Shown here piece by piece: positions 4,557-62,942 of a stretch of 62,942 nt of DNA; within the stretch, counting starts at the first letter, position 1, and each line of letters begins with the position of its first letter. Source of the stretch: a virus (Duplodnaviria > Caudoviricetes); the IMG/VR virus record IMGVR_UViG_3300009152_000050, positions 1 to 62,942 of that record. One strand, 5' to 3'. The notes beneath the pieces are model-generated. The model saw only the letters and a program-made list of their open reading frames with translations. It searched no databases and was not told where the DNA came from. The position numbers and the translations under genes are program-made.

Positions 4557-4832
4557 ATGACAGACATTTTAGAAACACTTGCAAAAACGTTTGAGCCATT
4601 ACCTACAATGGAGTTAGCTGCTATATGGTTAGAAAAGCCAGTAGTAACTAATGAAGGTAAGACAGTAAGACTTACAAAAGGCCATCAAGTATTAGTAGTA
4701 GATAATGAATTAACTGATATGATAGATGACCCTTCCCATCAAGTACTAAAAGTATTCGGTAAAAGTAATAGCGATTTCAGTATTTTGTTAGTGGATTTGA
4801 TTACATTTGATTTATTAACCATAAACCTTTAA
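4557..4832 (+). CDS. Hypothetical protein
   Basis: ATG ORF. Confidence 0.65.
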   Translation: MTDILETLAKTFEPLPTMELAAIWLEKPVVTNEGKTVRLTKGHQVLVVDNELTDMIDDPSHQVLKVFGKSNSDFSILLVDLITFDLLTINL

Positions 4833-4835
4833 AAA

Positions 4836-5096
4836 ATGGAGATTACACACACAAACGTAGGAAGTCCTAAATTAGCAGTAGGATATAAAGCAAATGTAAG
4901 AAGCAATACTGCACCAGAAATTGCGGAAACATTCACAGATGATAATGGAGAAGTACAGTACATACTATGTAATGGTAATACACAACCTAAAATAGTATAT
5001 GATGCTCTATGGAATCCAATAAAAGGTAAAGTAAACCTAAACAAACTATATAAAGGAGAAAACCCTGATAGAACTAAGCTATGGTATAAGGGATAA
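4836..5096 (+). CDS. Hypothetical protein; its TAA stop forms the first TAAC core of the cassette array
   Basis: ...AAG GGA TAA C at 5094-5097. Confidence 0.7.
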   Translation: MEITHTNVGSPKLAVGYKANVRSNTAPEIAETFTDDNGEVQYILCNGNTQPKIVYDALWNPIKGKVNLNKLYKGENPDRTKLWYKG

Positions 5097-5122
5097 CGTT
5101 TTGCGTATATACGAGGTACGCC
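5094..5122 (+). repeat. Truncated attC-like site A (left arm only)
   Basis: TAACGTTTTGCGTATA resembles the site D left arm (TAACGGTTTGCGTATA); no right arm found. Confidence 0.55.
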
Positions 5123-5148
5123 TTAACGAAATTATAAATTATAAACAA

Positions 5149-5349
5149 ATGGGAGATTACAGTTTCGATTTAAGACCACTAATTTGGTTAGGTGCATTTA
5201 TCATCCTTGCAATTTGGGGATGTTGGGAGTTGATTGATTGGTTATGGATAGACGATGCCATTCGTAGCACCAAACCAATTATACCCGAAATAGAATTGAT
5301 TATAAAAAATAATGTTGTAGATACTGTCTATGTGTATCGTCAGCCTTAA
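5149..5349 (+). CDS. Cassette 1: small membrane protein
   Basis: ATG at 5149, one TM segment; followed by TGCTTATAAC. Confidence 0.6.
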   Translation: MGDYSFDLRPLIWLGAFIILAIWGCWELIDWLWIDDAIRSTKPIIPEIELIIKNNVVDTVYVYRQP

Positions 5350-5356
5350 TTGCTTA

Positions 5357-5434
5357 TAACGTTTTCGGGCTTAGCGAAGTGGCTTTTGTGCGTTGGCTTG
5401 TGTGTCGGAAAGCCATTTTGCCAAACCCGTGTTA
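5357..5434 (+). repeat. attC-like hairpin B
   Basis: TAAC-gtttt-CGGGCTTAGCGAAGTGGCTTT ... AAAGCCATTTTGCCAAACCCG-t-GTTA. Confidence 0.85.
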
Positions 5435-5505
5435 TATGAAGTGCCGACTTATTTACGATAAAGCTCAATTGGAATACTAAACAGAAAAACAAAAAGAAAA
5501 AAAAC

Positions 5506-5688
5506 GTGGGAAATTTAAAAGTAAAAATAATTGATACCAATGGATTAAGTGAAGAAACTATATCCAAGATTGAAGATACTATGATTTATTTAGGTATGGA
5601 GCAAGTAGATGAATGTATGTTCTGCAAAATAAAGAATAGTAAAAACGAAGTATTAATGATATTCCCAGAAAGAATAATAAAACTATAA
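5506..5688 (+). CDS. Cassette 2 ORF a, hypothetical
   Basis: GTG-start ORF closely coupled to the next ORF. Confidence 0.5.
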   Translation: MGNLKVKIIDTNGLSEETISKIEDTMIYLGMEQVDECMFCKIKNSKNEVLMIFPERIIKL

Positions 5689-5690
5689 AT

Positions 5691-5954
5691 ATGGAAAACA
5701 CATTAAGTTTATTTGATGATTTAGAAAACGAATGGCAAAAAGAATGGAAGGATATGCCAGAGTTTATAACAAATAACAAAAAACCTTATCAGCAAATTAT
5801 TGTGTCATTTAAAAATTTTGATGATGTAAAAGAATTTGCAAAGAGATTAGGTTTAAATGTTACACCTAAAACAGATGCTTTATGGTTTCCAATGAAGGAT
5901 AAAGAAAGTGGATTACATTATGTAAATGATAATTGGAGTAAAGATGAAAAATAA
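5691..5954 (+). CDS. Cassette 2 ORF b, small partner of the TAGT-like glycosyltransferase
   Basis: W..MPEF...F...DD...F......T.KT..LWFP pattern recalled from proteins next to phage base-modifying GTs. Confidence 0.55.
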   Translation: MENTLSLFDDLENEWQKEWKDMPEFITNNKKPYQQIIVSFKNFDDVKEFAKRLGLNVTPKTDALWFPMKDKESGLHYVNDNWSKDEK

Positions 5955-6789
5955 ATACCCAATATTTATACCGACAAAAGGAAGGTTTAAAACACCACAG
6001 ACTATCAATATGTTTAAATCACATAATGTTGATTTTAGAATTGTTATAGAAAAACAAGAGTATGAGCAGTATTCTAAAATTATAGACAAATCAAAAATAA
6101 TAGTTGTTCCTCACCAAAACGAAGGATTGACTGTTACAAGGAATTGGATATGGGATTTTGCAGAAAATGAAGGACACGAAAAATTCTGGACATTTGACGA
6201 TAATATTGGTAGGGTTTACAGATGGAACAATAACACAAGATACCAATGTAAGGATGGAACATATTTAAAAGTAATTGAAGATTTTGCAGATAGATATAAT
6301 AACCTACACATAATTGGTATGAACTATATGTGTTTTTGTAAAAGTGGTGATAACATACCTCCATACTACCCTAATACAAGGATTTATAGTAATATGCTTT
6401 TACCGACAAATGTAAAACTATCTAATGGTGAAAAACTAAGAAACAAGTTGTTTTATAACGATGATACAGACCTTTGTTTAAGAGTTTTAAAGGATGGACT
6501 ACCTACTATACAAATCAATGCTTTTTTAATAGACAAGAGCCAAACAATGACAGTAAAAGGAGGGATGACAGATTACTATTTAAGTGATGAATGTAAAGGC
6601 AGATTAACATTTGCTGAAGAATTACAAAAGGCACATCCAGACGTAACGACTATAACTCAAAAGTTTGGGAGGTGGCATCACCACGTTAATTATAAACCTT
6701 TTAGAAAAAATAAGTTAATCCCAAAAGAAGGACTTATAATAAAAAAACAAGTCAATGAATATGGAATGGAACTTAAAAAAACTATTTAA
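5944..6789 (+). CDS. Cassette 2 ORF c: TET-associated/GREB1-like glycosyltransferase (putative DNA base modification)
   Basis: YPIFIPTKGR, TRNWIWD, FDDNI, YNDDTDL.LRVLKDG, KGGMT and GRWHHHVNY motifs. Confidence 0.75.
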   Translation: MKNKYPIFIPTKGRFKTPQTINMFKSHNVDFRIVIEKQEYEQYSKIIDKSKIIVVPHQNEGLTVTRNWIWDFAENEGHEKFWTFDDNIGRVYRWNNNTRYQCKDGTYLKVIEDFADRYNNLHIIGMNYMCFCKSGDNIPPYYPNTRIYSNMLLPTNVKLSNGEKLRNKLFYNDDTDLCLRVLKDGLPTIQINAFLIDKSQTMTVKGGMTDYYLSDECKGRLTFAEELQKAHPDVTTITQKFGRWHHHVNYKPFRKNKLIPKEGLIIKKQVNEYGMELKKTI

Positions 6790-6864
6790 AAGTGCGTTGG
6801 CTTTTTTCTTTTTGTTTTTCCTTCACGGATTTTCAATTGGAAACGGTCAGCAAGGCATTTCATA

Positions 6865-6990
6865 TAACGTTTTCGGGCTTGGCGAAGGCGGGGAGTTTAA
6901 CCACAAAAGTTTAATAGAATGACAGAAGATAATATAACCACAAATGTTCAATTGGAAAACGGAAGCCCCGCTTTTGCCAAACCCGTGTTA
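6865..6990 (+). repeat. attC-like hairpin C (loop contains the MTase start codon)
   Basis: TAAC-gtttt-CGGGCTTGGCGAAGGCGGGG ... CCCCGCTTTTGCCAAACCCG-t-GTTA; arms nearly identical to site B. Confidence 0.88.
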
Positions 6991-7629
6991 TGTGCTGGTG
7001 CGGTTTCAAAAGACGGAATTTCGTTAATAAACGGAGATTGTTTGCAAGCCTTACGAGGCTATGGCGATAATCATTTTAAGATAGCAATAGTTGACCCACC
7101 TTATGGAATTAATGCAGGTAAAATGACAATGGGAAGCGGTAAGCACAAATTTAGCAAAGACAAAGATTGGGATAGTGCAATACCAAGCGAAGAGTATTTT
7201 ACCGAATTATTTAGGGTGTCTGAAAATCAAATTGTGTGGGGTGGCAATTACTTTACTGAATTTTTACCGCCTACACCACATTGGCTTTTATGGGATAAGA
7301 AAAACCCAAATTTGAGCTTTGCTGAAGGTGAGTTGGCTTGGGTGCGAAAAGGTAAAAACCTGCGGATATTTCAACACTATTCAGCACAAGTTGAAGAAGG
7401 CGGCAAAATACACCCGACACAAAAGCCTGTAAAATTATACAGGTGGATATTAAACAACTACACAAGCGAAGGGGATTTGATTTTAGACACCCATTTGGGA
7501 AGCGGGTCAATCGCCATAGCCTGCCATCAAATGAAACGAAATTTAATAGCCTATGAGATTGATGAAGAATACTACCGAAAGGCTTGCAAACGATTTGAAG
7601 AACAAACTCGTCAAACTGCACTATGGTAG
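6919..7629 (+). CDS. Cassette 3: DNA methyltransferase, N6A/N4C beta class
   Basis: DPPY, HPTQKP, and D.HLGSGS motif I. Confidence 0.92.
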   Translation: MTEDNITTNVQLENGSPAFAKPVLCAGAVSKDGISLINGDCLQALRGYGDNHFKIAIVDPPYGINAGKMTMGSGKHKFSKDKDWDSAIPSEEYFTELFRVSENQIVWGGNYFTEFLPPTPHWLLWDKKNPNLSFAEGELAWVRKGKNLRIFQHYSAQVEEGGKIHPTQKPVKLYRWILNNYTSEGDLILDTHLGSGSIAIACHQMKRNLIAYEIDEEYYRKACKRFEEQTRQTALW

Positions 7630-7639
7630 CACTTGCACA

Positions 7640-7688
7640 TAACGGTTTGCGTATAAAAAATCGTTTTAATGTTTTTTATACGCTGTTA
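7640..7688 (+). repeat. attC-like hairpin D (short)
   Basis: TAAC-ggttt-GCGTATAAAAAA ... TTTTTTATACGC-t-GTTA. Confidence 0.85.
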
Positions 7689-7717
7689 GGTGTCTGGTTT
7701 TATTTAAAATTTGAGCG

Positions 7718-8233
7718 ATGGAAAAAATTATATTCTTAGATATTGACGGCGTTTTAGCAACTCCAAAATATTTGAAAGATGGACAATGGGCTTTAAACCC
7801 AGAAAAACAAAAACTGTTAGGTGAAATACTTACCCAAACAGATGCTAAAATTGTTTTATCTTCTTCATGGAGGTATGCGACTTTAGAAAAAACAAAAGAA
7901 CACATGGAAGCGGAAGGATTTTTGTTTAACGATAAATTGATTGGTGTTACAATTAGAGCATACCAATGGCTTGAACGTGGAACAGGGATACACTTATCAA
8001 TTCCAAGAGGTGTAGAGATAAAACAATGGGTTGATACTCATATTCATTCTGATAATGGTAAAAATTGGGAACGAAAGAAATTAGGCAAGGATTTTACCTA
8101 TGTGATATTAGATGATGAAAGTGATATGCTTTTGGAACACAGAAATAATTTTGTGCATACTAAAAGTGAAATAGGATTGACAGATGATGATGTTAGGAGT
8201 GCGGTGGCAATTTTAAATAAAACTTGCACCTAA
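7718..8233 (+). CDS. Cassette 4: HAD-family phosphatase (Swiss Army Knife RNA-repair-type HAD)
   Basis: FLDIDGV, LSSSWR, RG.EI..W and YVILDD motifs; stop TAA lies within the TAAC core. Confidence 0.85.
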   Translation: MEKIIFLDIDGVLATPKYLKDGQWALNPEKQKLLGEILTQTDAKIVLSSSWRYATLEKTKEHMEAEGFLFNDKLIGVTIRAYQWLERGTGIHLSIPRGVEIKQWVDTHIHSDNGKNWERKKLGKDFTYVILDDESDMLLEHRNNFVHTKSEIGLTDDDVRSAVAILNKTCT

Positions 8234-8285
8234 CGGGTATATGTAAACATTCTTTATAACTAAATGATAATTAAATAATTATGTT
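8231..8285 (-). other. Putative attI-like site (non-hairpin) at the 5' end of the recombinase
   Basis: Bottom strand reads ...ATATACCC-GTTAGGT; no hairpin partner; similar to 55766-55845. Confidence 0.6.
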
Positions 8286-9119
8286 ATGAATATCGGAAAG
8301 TATATACAGTTGTATTCCGAAGATTTACGATTGAAAAATTATGCTGAATCTTCTATTTCCAATTATGTATCACAGGTTAAATGTTTTTTAGAGCATTTTT
8401 CTGATGTAGCTACAAAGCCTTCTGAAATAAACGAAAGGCAAATAAAACAATGGCTACTTTCCGCTAATTCTATTAATGGAAGAAGGCATAGATTATCAGC
8501 ATTAAAGCTATTCTATTCGCTTACAGGTAAACAGCCGTTAAAATTTAAGCACATAGAATATCCTCGGTCAGAAAAAAAATTACCAATCGTTCTGTCTGTG
8601 GAAGAAGTACAGAAAATGTTTTCAGCGTGTTCTAATACAAAACACAAGTTAATATTGGCTATTTTGTACTCTTGCGGATTACGGGTTAGTGAATTGATAA
8701 GCCTTAAATGGAATAACATTGACAGGAGCAGGATGGTAATAAATATTATTGGAGCAAAAGGGAATAAAGACCGTCAAGTACCGTTACCTGAAATACTTAT
8801 TCCTTTATTAGAAAAATACTGGTATAAATACAAAACTAAAACATACATTTTAGAGGGGCAATTTAAAGATGTATATAGCAGCAGAAGTGTACTTGAAGTA
8901 GTTAAACAATTAGCAGAAAAAGCAGGGTTAAGGAAAGATGTTTGGACGCACTTAATTCGTCATTGCTATGGAACGCATCAGGTGGAAAGTGGAGTTGACA
9001 TAAATCTCATACAGAAAATACTTGGGCATAGCAATGTTAAGACAACTAATATCTATTTACATACCTCACATAACTTAATATCTCGTATTCAATCACCTTT
9101 AAATAGTATTAATTTATGA
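8286..9119 (+). CDS. Tyrosine recombinase, integron-integrase-like (no obvious IntI-specific insertion)
   Basis: LP.VLS.EEV, GLRVSE, KGNKDR, HLIRH, LGH..VKTT.IY, C-terminal IQSPL; 277 aa. Confidence 0.93.
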   Translation: MNIGKYIQLYSEDLRLKNYAESSISNYVSQVKCFLEHFSDVATKPSEINERQIKQWLLSANSINGRRHRLSALKLFYSLTGKQPLKFKHIEYPRSEKKLPIVLSVEEVQKMFSACSNTKHKLILAILYSCGLRVSELISLKWNNIDRSRMVINIIGAKGNKDRQVPLPEILIPLLEKYWYKYKTKTYILEGQFKDVYSSRSVLEVVKQLAEKAGLRKDVWTHLIRHCYGTHQVESGVDINLIQKILGHSNVKTTNIYLHTSHNLISRIQSPLNSINL

Positions 9120-54595: not shown

Positions 54596-54736
54596 ATGAA
54601 AAAATTATTCAGAAAAATTATTGCAATATACAATCGTTGTAGATACTGCGGAAGAACAATAGAAGATACTGGTGCTGGTTCTGAACCAAGACCTAATATG
54701 TGTGAAAGATGTTTTGAAAACGGAGGGGATGAATAA
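54596..54736 (+). CDS. Small zinc-finger protein (46 aa); its stop codon forms a TAAC core
   Basis: CRYC...CERC; GAA TAA C at 54734. Confidence 0.55.
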   Translation: MKKLFRKIIAIYNRCRYCGRTIEDTGAGSEPRPNMCERCFENGGDE

Positions 54737-54823
54737 CGAATGGTGCTATGAGCAGGTTTGCCTTGCAGAAATGTTCAAATTTAGCACAAATTTTATTGGC
54801 AAACTTGCTTATAGCACGTGTTA
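54734..54823 (+). repeat. attC-like hairpin F
   Basis: TAAC-gaatg-GTGCTATGAGCAGGTTTGCC ... GGCAAACTTGCTTATAGCAC-gt-GTTA. Confidence 0.85.
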
Positions 54824-54883
54824 TACGCTGGCACGGGTGATTTAGAAGAATGTTTAATTGGAATACGGTAAAAAAGAAAATAA

Positions 54884-55672
54884 ATGCGAAGCGAGGGGAA
54901 AATAGAATTGTTTAATGAGGACTGTATGCTAACTATGAAACGGATAGCATCAGGGACGGTTGATTTGATATTGACTGACCCGCCATATAACACAACGCAA
55001 TGTGAATGGGAATATGATATTGATTTAACGGCTTTATGGGCTGAATGGCAAAGGATATTGAAGCCCAATGGAGTAATATGTGTTTTTGCAGATGAACCAT
55101 TTACAAGCCGTTTAATCGTTTCAAAATTGGATTGGTTTAAAATTAGGATTACTTGGGATAAAATGACTGGCTCAAACTTTTTGAATGCTAAAAAAATGCC
55201 GTTAAAACAAACTGAAGATGTAGTAATTTTTTCAGGCGTTAAAAATGGGCAATACACTTACAACCCGATTTTAACTGATAAACCTAAACACAATATAAGA
55301 CCCGTTGGAAATAGAAAGCCAAGTGTAAATAATACTACATACGGACAACACAGCGGACAATATTCAGCGGATTACGACCCAACAAAGAACTATCCGACAA
55401 ACTTACTTTCAATAATGGCAAAGCAAGATGAATGTAATAGCGTGAACCGATGGCATCCAACTCAAAAACCTACAGAGATTATGCAATGGCTTGTAAAGAC
55501 ATTTAGCAACCAACACGAAATTGTTTTTGATGGATATAGTGGAAGCGGAGTAACTGCCATTGCTTGTGAAATTGAAAATAGAAACTTTATAGGAAGTGAA
55601 TTGAATGAGGAATATTACAAAAAAGCATTACAACGAATTAAAGATGAAACAGCACAACTTAAAATATTTTAA
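54884..55672 (+). CDS. DNA methyltransferase, N6A/N4C beta class (cassette cargo)
   Basis: TDPPY, HPTQKP, DGYSGSG. Confidence 0.92.
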   Translation: MRSEGKIELFNEDCMLTMKRIASGTVDLILTDPPYNTTQCEWEYDIDLTALWAEWQRILKPNGVICVFADEPFTSRLIVSKLDWFKIRITWDKMTGSNFLNAKKMPLKQTEDVVIFSGVKNGQYTYNPILTDKPKHNIRPVGNRKPSVNNTTYGQHSGQYSADYDPTKNYPTNLLSIMAKQDECNSVNRWHPTQKPTEIMQWLVKTFSNQHEIVFDGYSGSGVTAIACEIENRNFIGSELNEEYYKKALQRIKDETAQLKIF

Positions 55673-55867
55673 TGGTTTTGAAAAAACCAACAGAAGCGTG
55701 GGGCATTTATTTTCTTTTTTACTTCCACAAAAGTTCAATTGGAACACGGATGTAGTGCTTGCGTATAACATAAAATATGTACGTTTCCTTTGTAATTAAT
55801 TAATTTAAAGCTACTTATGATATGTTTCCTGAACGTATCGGTAGTCTTATTCAGTAAACTATAAACT

Positions 55868-62819: not shown

Positions 62820-62942
62820 CAAAGATACAACACCCTATTTAATTATCCAAATTTATTTTATTAAATAACCATATTTAAGTGTAAAGAGATTGATGAGTGG
62901 TAACTAATAAGGATGAGTGGAGGCCAATTAACGGCCAATTAC
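62820..62942 (-). repeat. Right inverted terminal repeat with inward promoter
   Basis: Exact reverse complement of 1-123. Confidence 0.97.

Follow-up and report, generated by a model that had tools for sequence, protein, structure and literature searches.

The virus record IMGVR_UViG_3300009152_000050 of IMG/VR, analysed here over its whole 62,942 bp (the window; G + C content ~33%), is the complete 62.9-kb genome of a phage with a Bacteroidota host. It carries two integron-like cassette sites: a row of four cassettes at 5097–8234, beside the gene of an Xer-like tyrosine recombinase, and a solo cassette at 54738–55769. Perfect inverted repeats nested in the ends of these cassettes, in the rightward early region of the genome, are the subject of this study. 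They are probably the two halves of one long cassette hairpin, which would be separated when an integron-like cassette inserts; we give this reading a probability of roughly 60%.

Paired cassette ends and points of exchange

A preliminary description of the window had pointed to two inner repeats, and both are present. The first, of 19 bp (GAAAAACAAAAAGAAAAAA at 5484–5502, exact reverse complement at 6802–6820), brackets the three open reading frames (ORFs) of cassette 2 (5506–5688, 5691–5954 and 5926–6789). The second, of 20 bp (GTAAAAAAGAAAATAAATGC at 54868–54887, exact reverse complement at 55703–55722), lies around the methyltransferase gene of the solo cassette (54884–55672), with its left arm overlapping the ATG at 54884. 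No other perfect inverted repeat in the window reaches 16 bp with its arms within 3 kb of each other. Block shuffling gave a perfect 19-mer pair within 3 kb in 0 of 200 shuffles, compared with two in the window, and a 16-mer pair in 21 of 200; 14-mer inverted matches were common by chance, with at least one in 83 of 100 shuffles. Further repeats had been overlooked: a perfect 15-bp repeat in cassette 4 (7697–7711 / 8209–8223; HAD gene at 7718–8233), a 13-bp repeat within the coding sequence of the cassette 3 methyltransferase (7040–7052 / 7579–7591; gene at 6919–7629), and on all four cassettes an outer repeat, which starts at GTTA and ends at TAAC. In cassette 2 and the solo cassette, the right inner arm begins 13–30 nt past the stop codon.

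The GTTA and TAAC cores belong to hairpins with a common plan: xTAAC, ~5 unpaired bases, a ~20-bp imperfect stem, a loop, the return stem, ~1 base and GTTAx. Four strong xTAAC..GTTAx hairpins were found in the window, all on the + strand, whereas 10 shuffles gave 0–2. From the window and from fetched loci (L numbers) we collected 336 hairpins and 181 cassettes, a cassette being the DNA between successive hairpins. The hairpin finder demanded TAAC and GTTA, and many of the loci were chosen by one 23-mer or one 18-mer. The hairpins spanned a median of 120 nt, with a 5′ gap of 5 nt in 208 of 293 and a 3′ gap of 1 nt in 208 of 293. Across the loci, 271 distinct stem families shared this architecture.

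Beyond GTTA, the left end of a cassette pairs with the right end of the same cassette. In 178 cassettes, the bases at positions 5–9 after GTTA were complementary to those before the cassette's own TAAC in 84–89%, at position 10 in 67% and at positions 12–15 in 67–80%. Pairing with the flank across the same hairpin reached 24–61% (34–61% at positions 5–9), which equals random partners. Pairing thus follows the own far end and is at chance level with the neighbour, so that the partner switches exactly at GTTA. Position 11 was a Watson-Crick pair in just 4%, with a left G opposite a right T in 140 of 180 cassettes; in the window this position is found at 5441/6858, 6997/7633 and 54830/55759. A wobble or mismatch fixed at this position could serve to distinguish one strand, or one end, from the other.

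The closed junctions of four window cassettes folded as one hairpin each, with −44.8, −52.0, −28.9 and −50.4 kcal/mol (DNA parameters), compared with −31.7 and −26.0 kcal/mol for non-cognate ends and −35.5 for the array context. The cognate junction was more stable than the non-cognate one in 139 of 161 cassettes (mean −34.4 vs −27.7) and than the array context in 135 of 159. In the closed fold two CAATTGGAA copies face each other, and TTCAATTGAA is its own reverse complement.

Further inside, beyond position 15, 25 of the 123 cassettes longer than 320 nt had a perfect repeat of at least 12 bp, compared with 0.5% for shuffled partners, and 11 had one of at least 16 bp, compared with none. These inner repeats were most frequent in cassettes of 600–1000 nt (17 of 45), and 20 of the 25 lay 35–60 nt from both ends, with a mean A + T content of 0.79 against 0.67 overall. 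Their sequence varied among cassettes, the left arm being either A-rich or T-rich. In several methyltransferase lineages both inner arms fell in coding sequence, using different codons each time; the stems of related methyltransferases at 7040–7052 / 7579–7591 and in L023, L032, L060 and L080 lie in the N- and C-terminal parts of the gene. As codons and residues differ per lineage, the protein sequence seems to yield to the need for pairing. Arms that differ and still pair represent covariation, and the pairing of the inner arms itself appears, from the sequences compared, to be under selection.

The stems also have a preferred strand. With all mismatches penalised equally, the 271 stem families had 317 G.T plus T.G against 103 C.A plus A.C oppositions, which means that the sense strand folds better; this fits folding as DNA, and equally as RNA. 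Hairpins can overlap the start of the gene that they precede. In the Flavobacterium phage hemulen6-1, three hairpins stand ahead of three successive methyltransferase genes, with a start codon in each loop. The commonest hairpin type (L022–L147) has an ATG in its loop, from which a frame runs via the 3′ arm into different gene bodies. Two frames are used (..QPFCQTRV.. or ..HFAKPVL..), and changes of 1 nt in loop length preserve the frame. Since this hairpin is read in two frames, the conserved element is the nucleic acid and not a peptide.

The hairpin travels with the cassette downstream of it. We retrieved the 18-mer of the cassette 2 left end from 71 IMG/VR stretches, representing 65 distinct contexts, 48 of them with both cassette ends. 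Upstream of this left end, the hairpin arm TTGCCAAACCCG was found in 40 of the 65 contexts (entropy 2.37 bits). On the downstream side (entropy 5.3 bits), 5 of the 48 cassettes were followed by a hairpin of the same family, 28 by one of many other kinds and 15 by none. The unit is therefore a hairpin plus the following cassette, ending in TAAC.

An exchange of such units is seen between the window and its relative L342. The two align up to 54737, the C of TAAC, with 87.9% identity, and again from 55770 with 85.7%. In between, L342 has 496 unrelated bases and the window 1032. The L342 insert includes a small cassette with paired ends and a hairpin, both distinct from those of the window, and the difference is an exact TAAC-to-TAAC replacement. 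At this site, where the window has its solo cassette, L342 begins with a 103-nt unit (L342 2406–2508) that lacks a hairpin, ends in ATATAAC and encodes a 22-aa hydrophobic peptide; the hairpin cassette comes next.

Contigs from other samples ceased to match the window at 5093, 5435, 6863/6864, 6990 and 7643. In one contig (run X6) the unit 6865–7643, hairpin plus methyltransferase from TAAC to TAAC, lies between unrelated flanks. Contigs also broke or rejoined at the edges of inner repeats (5503→6785, 5509→6788 and, in run X2, 7712→8212). The letters between the two sides of these joints, and of 5435→6864, are not known, and the joints cannot be counted as empty forms. The four other-sample runs consist of assembled contigs, in which uncovered stretches, depths and absent circle junctions carry no information.

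The cassette ends also serve as a scaffold for unrelated cargo. The 48 two-ended cassettes of the cassette 2 family were 379–1457 nt long, and their 87 ORFs (at least 45 aa) fell into 38 blastp clusters, which bears out the earlier suggestion of a shared scaffold holding different genes. Eighteen cluster representatives were compared with Pfam: N6_N4 and MT-A70 methyltransferases, Mom-family, PAPS_reduct-like and GNAT proteins were recognized, and 11 of the 18 had no match. The window copy carries a TET-associated glycosyltransferase (Pfam TAGT) and two small ORFs. On the left, conservation of the scaffold includes the inner arm and reaches as far as ..AGCG ATG G; among 35 family members measured, 28 have an arm that stops 3 nt ahead of the start codon. 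On the right, conservation begins at about ..T TAA AAGTGCGGTGGC and includes the other arm. Scaffolds can be mosaic: L153, L164 and L198 keep the outer end with another inner repeat, which is also found on a different outer end (L035).

The short motifs that the preliminary description had noticed in the cassette ends proved to be real. (C/T)AATTGGAA occurs as CAATTGGAA at 5466, 6834, 6949 and 55736 and as TAATTGGAA at 54855. It is usually followed by ACGG, directly or one base later, the exception among the five being the copy at 5466. GTGCGTTGGCTT is present at 5388 and 6792, where 0.10 copies were expected with up to one mismatch. Counted against the background, AATTGGAA was not enriched (10 matches on both strands vs 5.92 ± 2.49 expected; 8 of 100 shuffles reached 10). 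Its placement was non-random, 5 of the 10 matches lying in cassette ends or in a hairpin loop. Similarly, TAACGTTTT with one mismatch was at chance level in the window (37 vs 36.7 expected), and only its three exact copies, at 5094, 5357 and 6865, matter. In the wider collection AATTGRAA was found in 43 of 48 members of the cassette 2 family at the left end and likewise in 43 of 48 at the right, compared with 7 and 3 of 118 other cassettes. A GTGCG(G/T)TGG-type motif was found in 37 of the 48 right ends, and a related pattern in 5 of 118 other right ends. The CAATTGGAA and GTGCGTTGG motifs are thus marks of one scaffold family and not general signals. A universal signal of the CAATTGGAA type was rejected, as the motif is limited to this family and its count in the window is not significant.

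Recombinase, adjoining site and distribution

A classical integron cassette consists of an ORF and a short attC site, and the integron itself has an IntI integrase and a primary site, attI. The window has a comparable gene next to its array. The ORF at 8286–9119 (+ strand) encodes a protein of 277 aa with a match to Pfam Phage_integrase (E 5.7e-36) and with SAM-like N-terminal domains. In its translation we recognized R..K..HxxR..H..Y motifs, which we take to be the catalytic ones; fold and catalytic residues are those of a tyrosine recombinase. The protein was placed in the Xer/IntI group. The integron integrase model TIGR02249 (integrase_gron) matched in two stretches with 167.6 bits, against a cut-off of 265. 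The IntI4 structure 2a3v likewise matched in two stretches (best, query 201–273 to chain 245–318), indicating that ~45 residues are missing from the recombinase. The best NCBIfam match was recomb_XerA_Arch, with 199.5 against a cut-off of 220.

Sixteen relatives of the recombinase were found in IMG/VR. Rows of co-oriented hairpins preceded the gene in 8 of the 10 relatives that had at least ~0.8 kb of upstream DNA, the exceptions being L016 and L019. Of 17 loci, 16 have a putative attI-like site, TAAC-N5-8-(A/T)TGTA, 53–56 nt ahead of the recombinase gene, and L016 has a near-match at the same place; the site always came after the last cassette. In the window the site is CTAAC GGGTA TATGTA (8230–8245, + strand), with its TAAC 55 nt before the recombinase start. 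A second attI-like site, ATAAC ATAAAA TATGTA (55765–55781, + strand), is abutted by the solo cassette and is nearly identical to the site beside the recombinase of the relatives L009, L019 and L021.

The hairpin family is widespread. The exact 23-base 5′ arm shared by hairpins E1 and E2, which head cassettes 2 and 3, was found in at least 126 virus stretches and at least 121 Bacteroidota genome stretches. The genomes among the matches listed included those of Flavobacterium, Chitinophaga, Saprospiraceae, Pedobacter, Daejeonella, Chryseobacterium and others. Among the 121 genome loci listed, ~40 of which are only a few hundred bases long, 36 had at least two hairpins on one strand and 9 had a recombinase relative nearby. 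Loci L219–L339 place the arm in several Bacteroidota classes, and a few contigs were binned as Ignavibacteria, Balneolales, Patescibacteria or Alphaproteobacteria. Chromosomal arrays of 5–8 hairpins were seen in L252/L253 and in L292 (Daejeonella oryzae).

Layout of the two sites and the phage genome

All features of the two sites are on the + strand. The array begins at an ATAAC (5093–5097) whose TAA is the stop codon of the ORF 4836–5096; contigs from other samples start matching at 5093 and 5096. Cassette 1 (5098–5360) is degenerate, with a hairpin 5′ arm only (GCGTATATACGAGGTACGCCT), a small ORF for a membrane-type protein (ATG 5149 to 5349) and the end TTATAAC. In this first hairpin of the array (5098–5148) the 3′ arm is gone. 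Contigs of runs X3 and X7 carry on at 5151 with the absent arm, so that other samples hold the intact hairpin, and an intact form is also present in L048.

Hairpin E1 (5356–5435) reads ATAAC-GTTTT-stem-loop-stem-T-GTTAT, with GTGCGTTGGCTT in its loop (5388–5399). The outer left end of cassette 2, GTTATATGAAGTGCC at 5431–5445, pairs in 14 of 15 positions with the outer right end, GGCATTTCATATAAC at 6854–6868, the exception being the G.T at position 11; the final TAAC of the right end is the start of the next unit. Inward on the left come the CAATTGGAA copy of the spacer (5466–5474) and the inner arm (5484–5502), which stops 3 nt short of a GTG start at 5506. The cargo (5506–6789) comprises ORFs of 60, 87 and 287 aa, the last one the TET-associated glycosyltransferase (PF20691, E 1.8e-31). 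As cargo, this gene (5926–6789) hints at phages that may glycosylate hydroxymethylated bases. On the right, GTGCGTTGGCTT (6792–6803) directly follows the stop codon and overlaps the start of the inner arm (6802–6820), and the right spacer has CAATTGGAA at 6834–6842.

Hairpin E2 (6864–6991) contains in its loop the ATG of the methyltransferase (6919) and a CAATTGGAA copy at 6949–6957, which reads Q-L-E in the methyltransferase leader. The loop has a direct repeat spaced by 37 nt (6901–6926 and 6938–6963); its first copy holds the real leader and ATG. The second has the CAATTGGAA motif and is similar to the spacers at the right ends of cassette 2 and the solo cassette. CAATTGGAA reads Q-L-E in an open frame in four of the five copies, the fifth having TAA in place of CAA (5379–5480, 6792–6914, 6919–6990 and 55725–55765). 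Short predicted ORFs cross the scaffolds, for example one of 40 aa from a GTG at 6792.

Cassette 3 (6987–7643) holds an N6_N4 methyltransferase (ORF 6919–7629), with outer ends at 6987–7001 and 7629–7643 (13 of 15 paired) and its 13-bp inner repeat inside the coding sequence. Hairpin E3 (7639–7689) heads cassette 4 (7685–8234), which encodes a HAD_SAK_2 protein (7718–8233) between the outer ends GTTAGGTG and CACCTAAC. The 11-nt loop of E3, TCGTTTTAATG (7661–7671), recurs on differing stems in P12002L_attC1, L159, L173, L202, L207 and L209. A handful of other discrete loop types recur likewise, and loops act as separate swappable modules.

At the solo site, hairpin E5 (54733–54824) starts with an ATAAC whose TAA is the stop codon of the ORF 54596–54736. 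The solo cassette (54820–55769) has outer ends at 54820–54834 and 55755–55769 (13 of 15 paired), motif copies at 54855 and 55736, the 20-bp inner repeat, and an N6_N4 methyltransferase.

The genome encodes a portal protein, a large terminase and virion proteins. Its IMG/VR entry gives it as 100% complete with inverted terminal repeats; these are perfect over 123 bp (1–123 and 62820–62942) and may be true genome ends or an assembly effect. A PHROGs scan of 20 larger ORFs found no DNA polymerase among them, so the terminal repeats are not tied to a strand-displacement replication that could be a source of single strands. Phages of Flavobacterium, Nonlabens and Tenacibaculum have methyltransferase genes similar to those of the window. 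A search of deposited phages for close relatives returned matches in the methyltransferase genes only, with 65–70% identity.

Mechanism, alternatives and significance

We propose that a free cassette would be a circle, in which the TAAC of the right end is closed onto the G of its own hairpin. Right end, hairpin and left end would then form one continuous, long imperfect hairpin, presumably when the sense strand is single-stranded. From its base upwards this would consist of the A/T-rich inner stem (the 19- and 20-bp repeats), a spacer of ~35 nt per arm with the near-palindromic TTCAATTGGAA, a 15-bp stem including TAAC/GTTA with the G.T at position 11, the 5x1 internal loop, the ~20-bp stem and the loop. 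Recombination with the TAAC..TATGTA site or with another hairpin, catalysed by the recombinase, would cross over at the AAC of the 5′ arm. This is also where attC sites recombine on their reactive strand. Here the crossover would fall mid-stem, 65–85 nt above the base of the hairpin, and integration would put the lower 5′ arm at the right end of the cassette and all else at its left end. A mid-stem crossover would thus produce the nested terminal inverted repeats around the cargo. What the lower stem does can be guessed: it may stabilise the closed cassette or mark it as a substrate, or hold the two ends together.

Several points weigh against this proposal. A perfect inner repeat of at least 12 bp was found in only about one fifth of the cassettes, and is therefore not essential. 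The recombinase lacks the IntI-specific insertion and scored under both NCBIfam cut-offs. A relative of it was found in only 5 of 37 virus records with the 23-base arm; 23 of these records are at least 90% complete, and only 2 of those encode one, so that most carriers would need the enzyme in trans. Some contig breaks lie right after GTTA (5435 and 6990) and not at TAAC; either exchange occurs there too, or other processes contribute. Because the finder relies on fixed cores and the loci on seed sequences, our counts are conditional and include related, non-independent sequences. Recombination, the circle and the single-stranded form are unobserved, and assembled contigs cannot show a circle junction. 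Of six sites assayed elsewhere, P12002L_attC1, a member of the hairpin family, was the only one whose IntI1 junction was not confirmed (Qi et al. 2023, PMC9892861).

Of the other explanations, a role in RNA survives best, and we consider it unlikely but credible. The 5′ and 3′ untranslated ends of a cassette transcript would pair as a panhandle, and the hairpins between cassettes would be processing or stabilising structures. Early anti-restriction messages would be protected or regulated in this way, the pairing would be kept by selection on RNA, and the cassettes could be moved by any recombination. Much of what speaks for such a role also speaks against the split-hairpin proposal: the stems favour the sense strand, the left arm typically stops just before the start codon or, in the solo cassette, covers the ATG, and the G-rich motifs by the stems stay on the sense strand with A-rich and T-rich left arms alike. 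The position of the right arms shortly after the stop codon and the 32 of 37 carrier records that lack a recombinase fit it as well. Ribosomes would, however, open the arms of those several methyltransferase cassettes in which both lie in coding sequence, ~50 nt from the ends. An Rfam 15 search over 4800–8400 gave no family match at gathering score, with one chance-level match (E 0.98). RNA pairing alone also leaves unexplained the TAAC..TATGTA site 55 nt before the recombinase, the replacement between the window and L342, and the linkage of hairpin and downstream cassette. It may coexist with a split DNA hairpin.

Beyond being a split recombination stem, the long ends might, though this is doubtful, be a standard adaptor. 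It would supply a start context (..AGCG ATG G..), a stop context (..T TAA AAGTGCGGTGGC..) and pairing stems, and a capture step would load unrelated ORFs precisely between start and stop. If this were true, the phage cassettes would be a living example of how integron-type cassettes are made; to our knowledge, how classical integron cassettes arise is an open question. The preliminary description had taken the scaffold as a possible trace of cassette construction. This found no support: a search of IMG/VR for an empty scaffold (inner repeat, 1–30 nt, inner repeat) gave 0 matches, and the split basal stem of a recombination hairpin is the simpler explanation. The predicted joined (empty) form of the solo site gave 2 matches, both in unrelated coding contexts.

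We regard it as improbable that site-specific recombination plays no part, with hairpins and scaffolds being conserved regulatory modules and cassettes being shuffled by homologous recombination between them. Homologous exchange has been proposed for the promoter-stem-loop (PeSL) cassettes of T4-type phages. The extreme conservation of the hairpin arm in phages and Bacteroidota genomes offers homology, and both the scaffold mosaics and the loops exchanged between identical arms (contig joints 6892→6967) look like its products. Several breaks share TAAC only, though, and four bases are too few for homologous exchange. The window and L342 flanks meet unrelated inserts at TAAC on both sides, and the run X6 unit is flanked by a left end and a hairpin that are both unrelated. 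Nor would homologous exchange account for the site at a fixed place next to the recombinase gene.

The inner repeats could also be imagined as the ends of small non-autonomous transposons, like miniature inverted-repeat transposable elements, that brought the cargo in. Perfect repeats of 15–20 bp do flank the cargo directly, with contig joints at their inner edges. This explanation is very improbable and largely refuted: the flanks of the inner repeats in the window cassettes are not direct repeats and hold no target-site duplication, the repeat sequence varies by cassette whereas a transposon family keeps its ends, and some repeats lie within cargo coding sequence. In addition, no transposase family match was found among the cargo ORFs scanned, and no cargo-free joined ends in IMG/VR. 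Chance matching of low-complexity A/T tracts in an A/T-rich genome, which readily yields 14-mers, is refuted by the shuffles for 19-mers and by the same placement in 25 of 123 cassettes of other contigs.

Two further models had been considered. A lox-like one, with variable arms, a conserved GCGRTGG spacer and integrated cargo, was dropped, as no empty site was found and as arms that vary around a conserved spacer are the reverse of how a protein-binding site behaves. Insertion 3′ of a tetranucleotide led us to consider an IS200/IS605-type or rolling-circle mechanism, which we set aside: no local hairpin is present at the right end, and the array adjoins the gene of a tyrosine recombinase with a putative site of its own.

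The proposed split hairpin shares much with classical integrons. A tyrosine recombinase gene stands next to a putative primary site and to co-oriented cassettes in a row; viewed on the opposite strand, the recombinase reads outward, followed by the putative primary site and by cassettes whose hairpins are on their far side, the ORFs being directed oppositely to those of a classical integron. Imperfect hairpins form the cassette sites, variable in sequence and conserved in shape, with inverse AAC / GTT cores. Crossover probably occurs in the 5′ arm of the strand that folds better, at the AAC/GTT triplet, and the bases past it pair with the far end of their own cassette (n = 178). In contrast to integrons, the recombinase of the window has no IntI-specific additional domain, and its hairpins lie 5′ of the cargo ORF, often with the start codon, where a classical attC is 3′. 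The paired region below the crossover is 15 to ~85 nt here, compared with ~6 in classical cassettes, which accounts for the long repeats at the cassette ends. The cassettes reside in a phage and carry DNA-modification genes.

Two other modular systems are similar in part. The pdif modules of Acinetobacter plasmids are moved by XerC/XerD at simple 28-bp duplex sites. They also hold many cargos with the same ends between inversely oriented Xer-type sites; here the sites are long hairpins, the cargo has a single orientation, and a constant asymmetry (5x1 loop, G.T at position 11) distinguishes the left end from the right. In PeSL cassettes, repeated stem-loop modules flank small accessory genes in plastic early regions. 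Exchange there is proposed to be homologous, whereas the breaks seen here fall on a 4-base core, beside a recombinase gene with its own putative site.

Clusters of attC sites lacking an integrase (CALINs) were described in virulent phages by Qi et al. (2023, PMC9892861), where a hairpin of Polaribacter phage P12002L is called an attC site in print. In that phage, hairpins of the window's family stand beside methyltransferase and Mom genes, and the P12002L_attC1 oligonucleotide is a member of this family, with a loop equal to that of E3. In the passages concerned, the sites are handled as ordinary attC, found by IntegronFinder and HattCI; these passages mention neither a hairpin family, an Xer-like recombinase, an adjoining site nor paired cassette ends, and the count of "Xer" is 0 (PMC9892861). 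A full-text literature search found no paper on the hairpin family, the recombinase, the adjoining site or the paired cassette ends.

Together, these results suggest that a large cassette pool across Bacteroidota phages and genomes uses a recombination hairpin that is far longer than the classical one and cut mid-stem. The pool carries DNA methyltransferases, Mom, glycosyltransferase and similar anti-restriction genes, and bears on how phages swap counter-defence genes quickly. Long nested inverted repeats framing the integrated cassettes, with the same ends serving at least 38 kinds of ORF among 48 cassettes, would be a simple sequence signature for cassettes and their boundaries. As the stems can be mutated, the length of the hairpin and its closed form can be probed. 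The system also bears on whether a plain Xer-like enzyme can perform integron-type chemistry without the IntI insertion.

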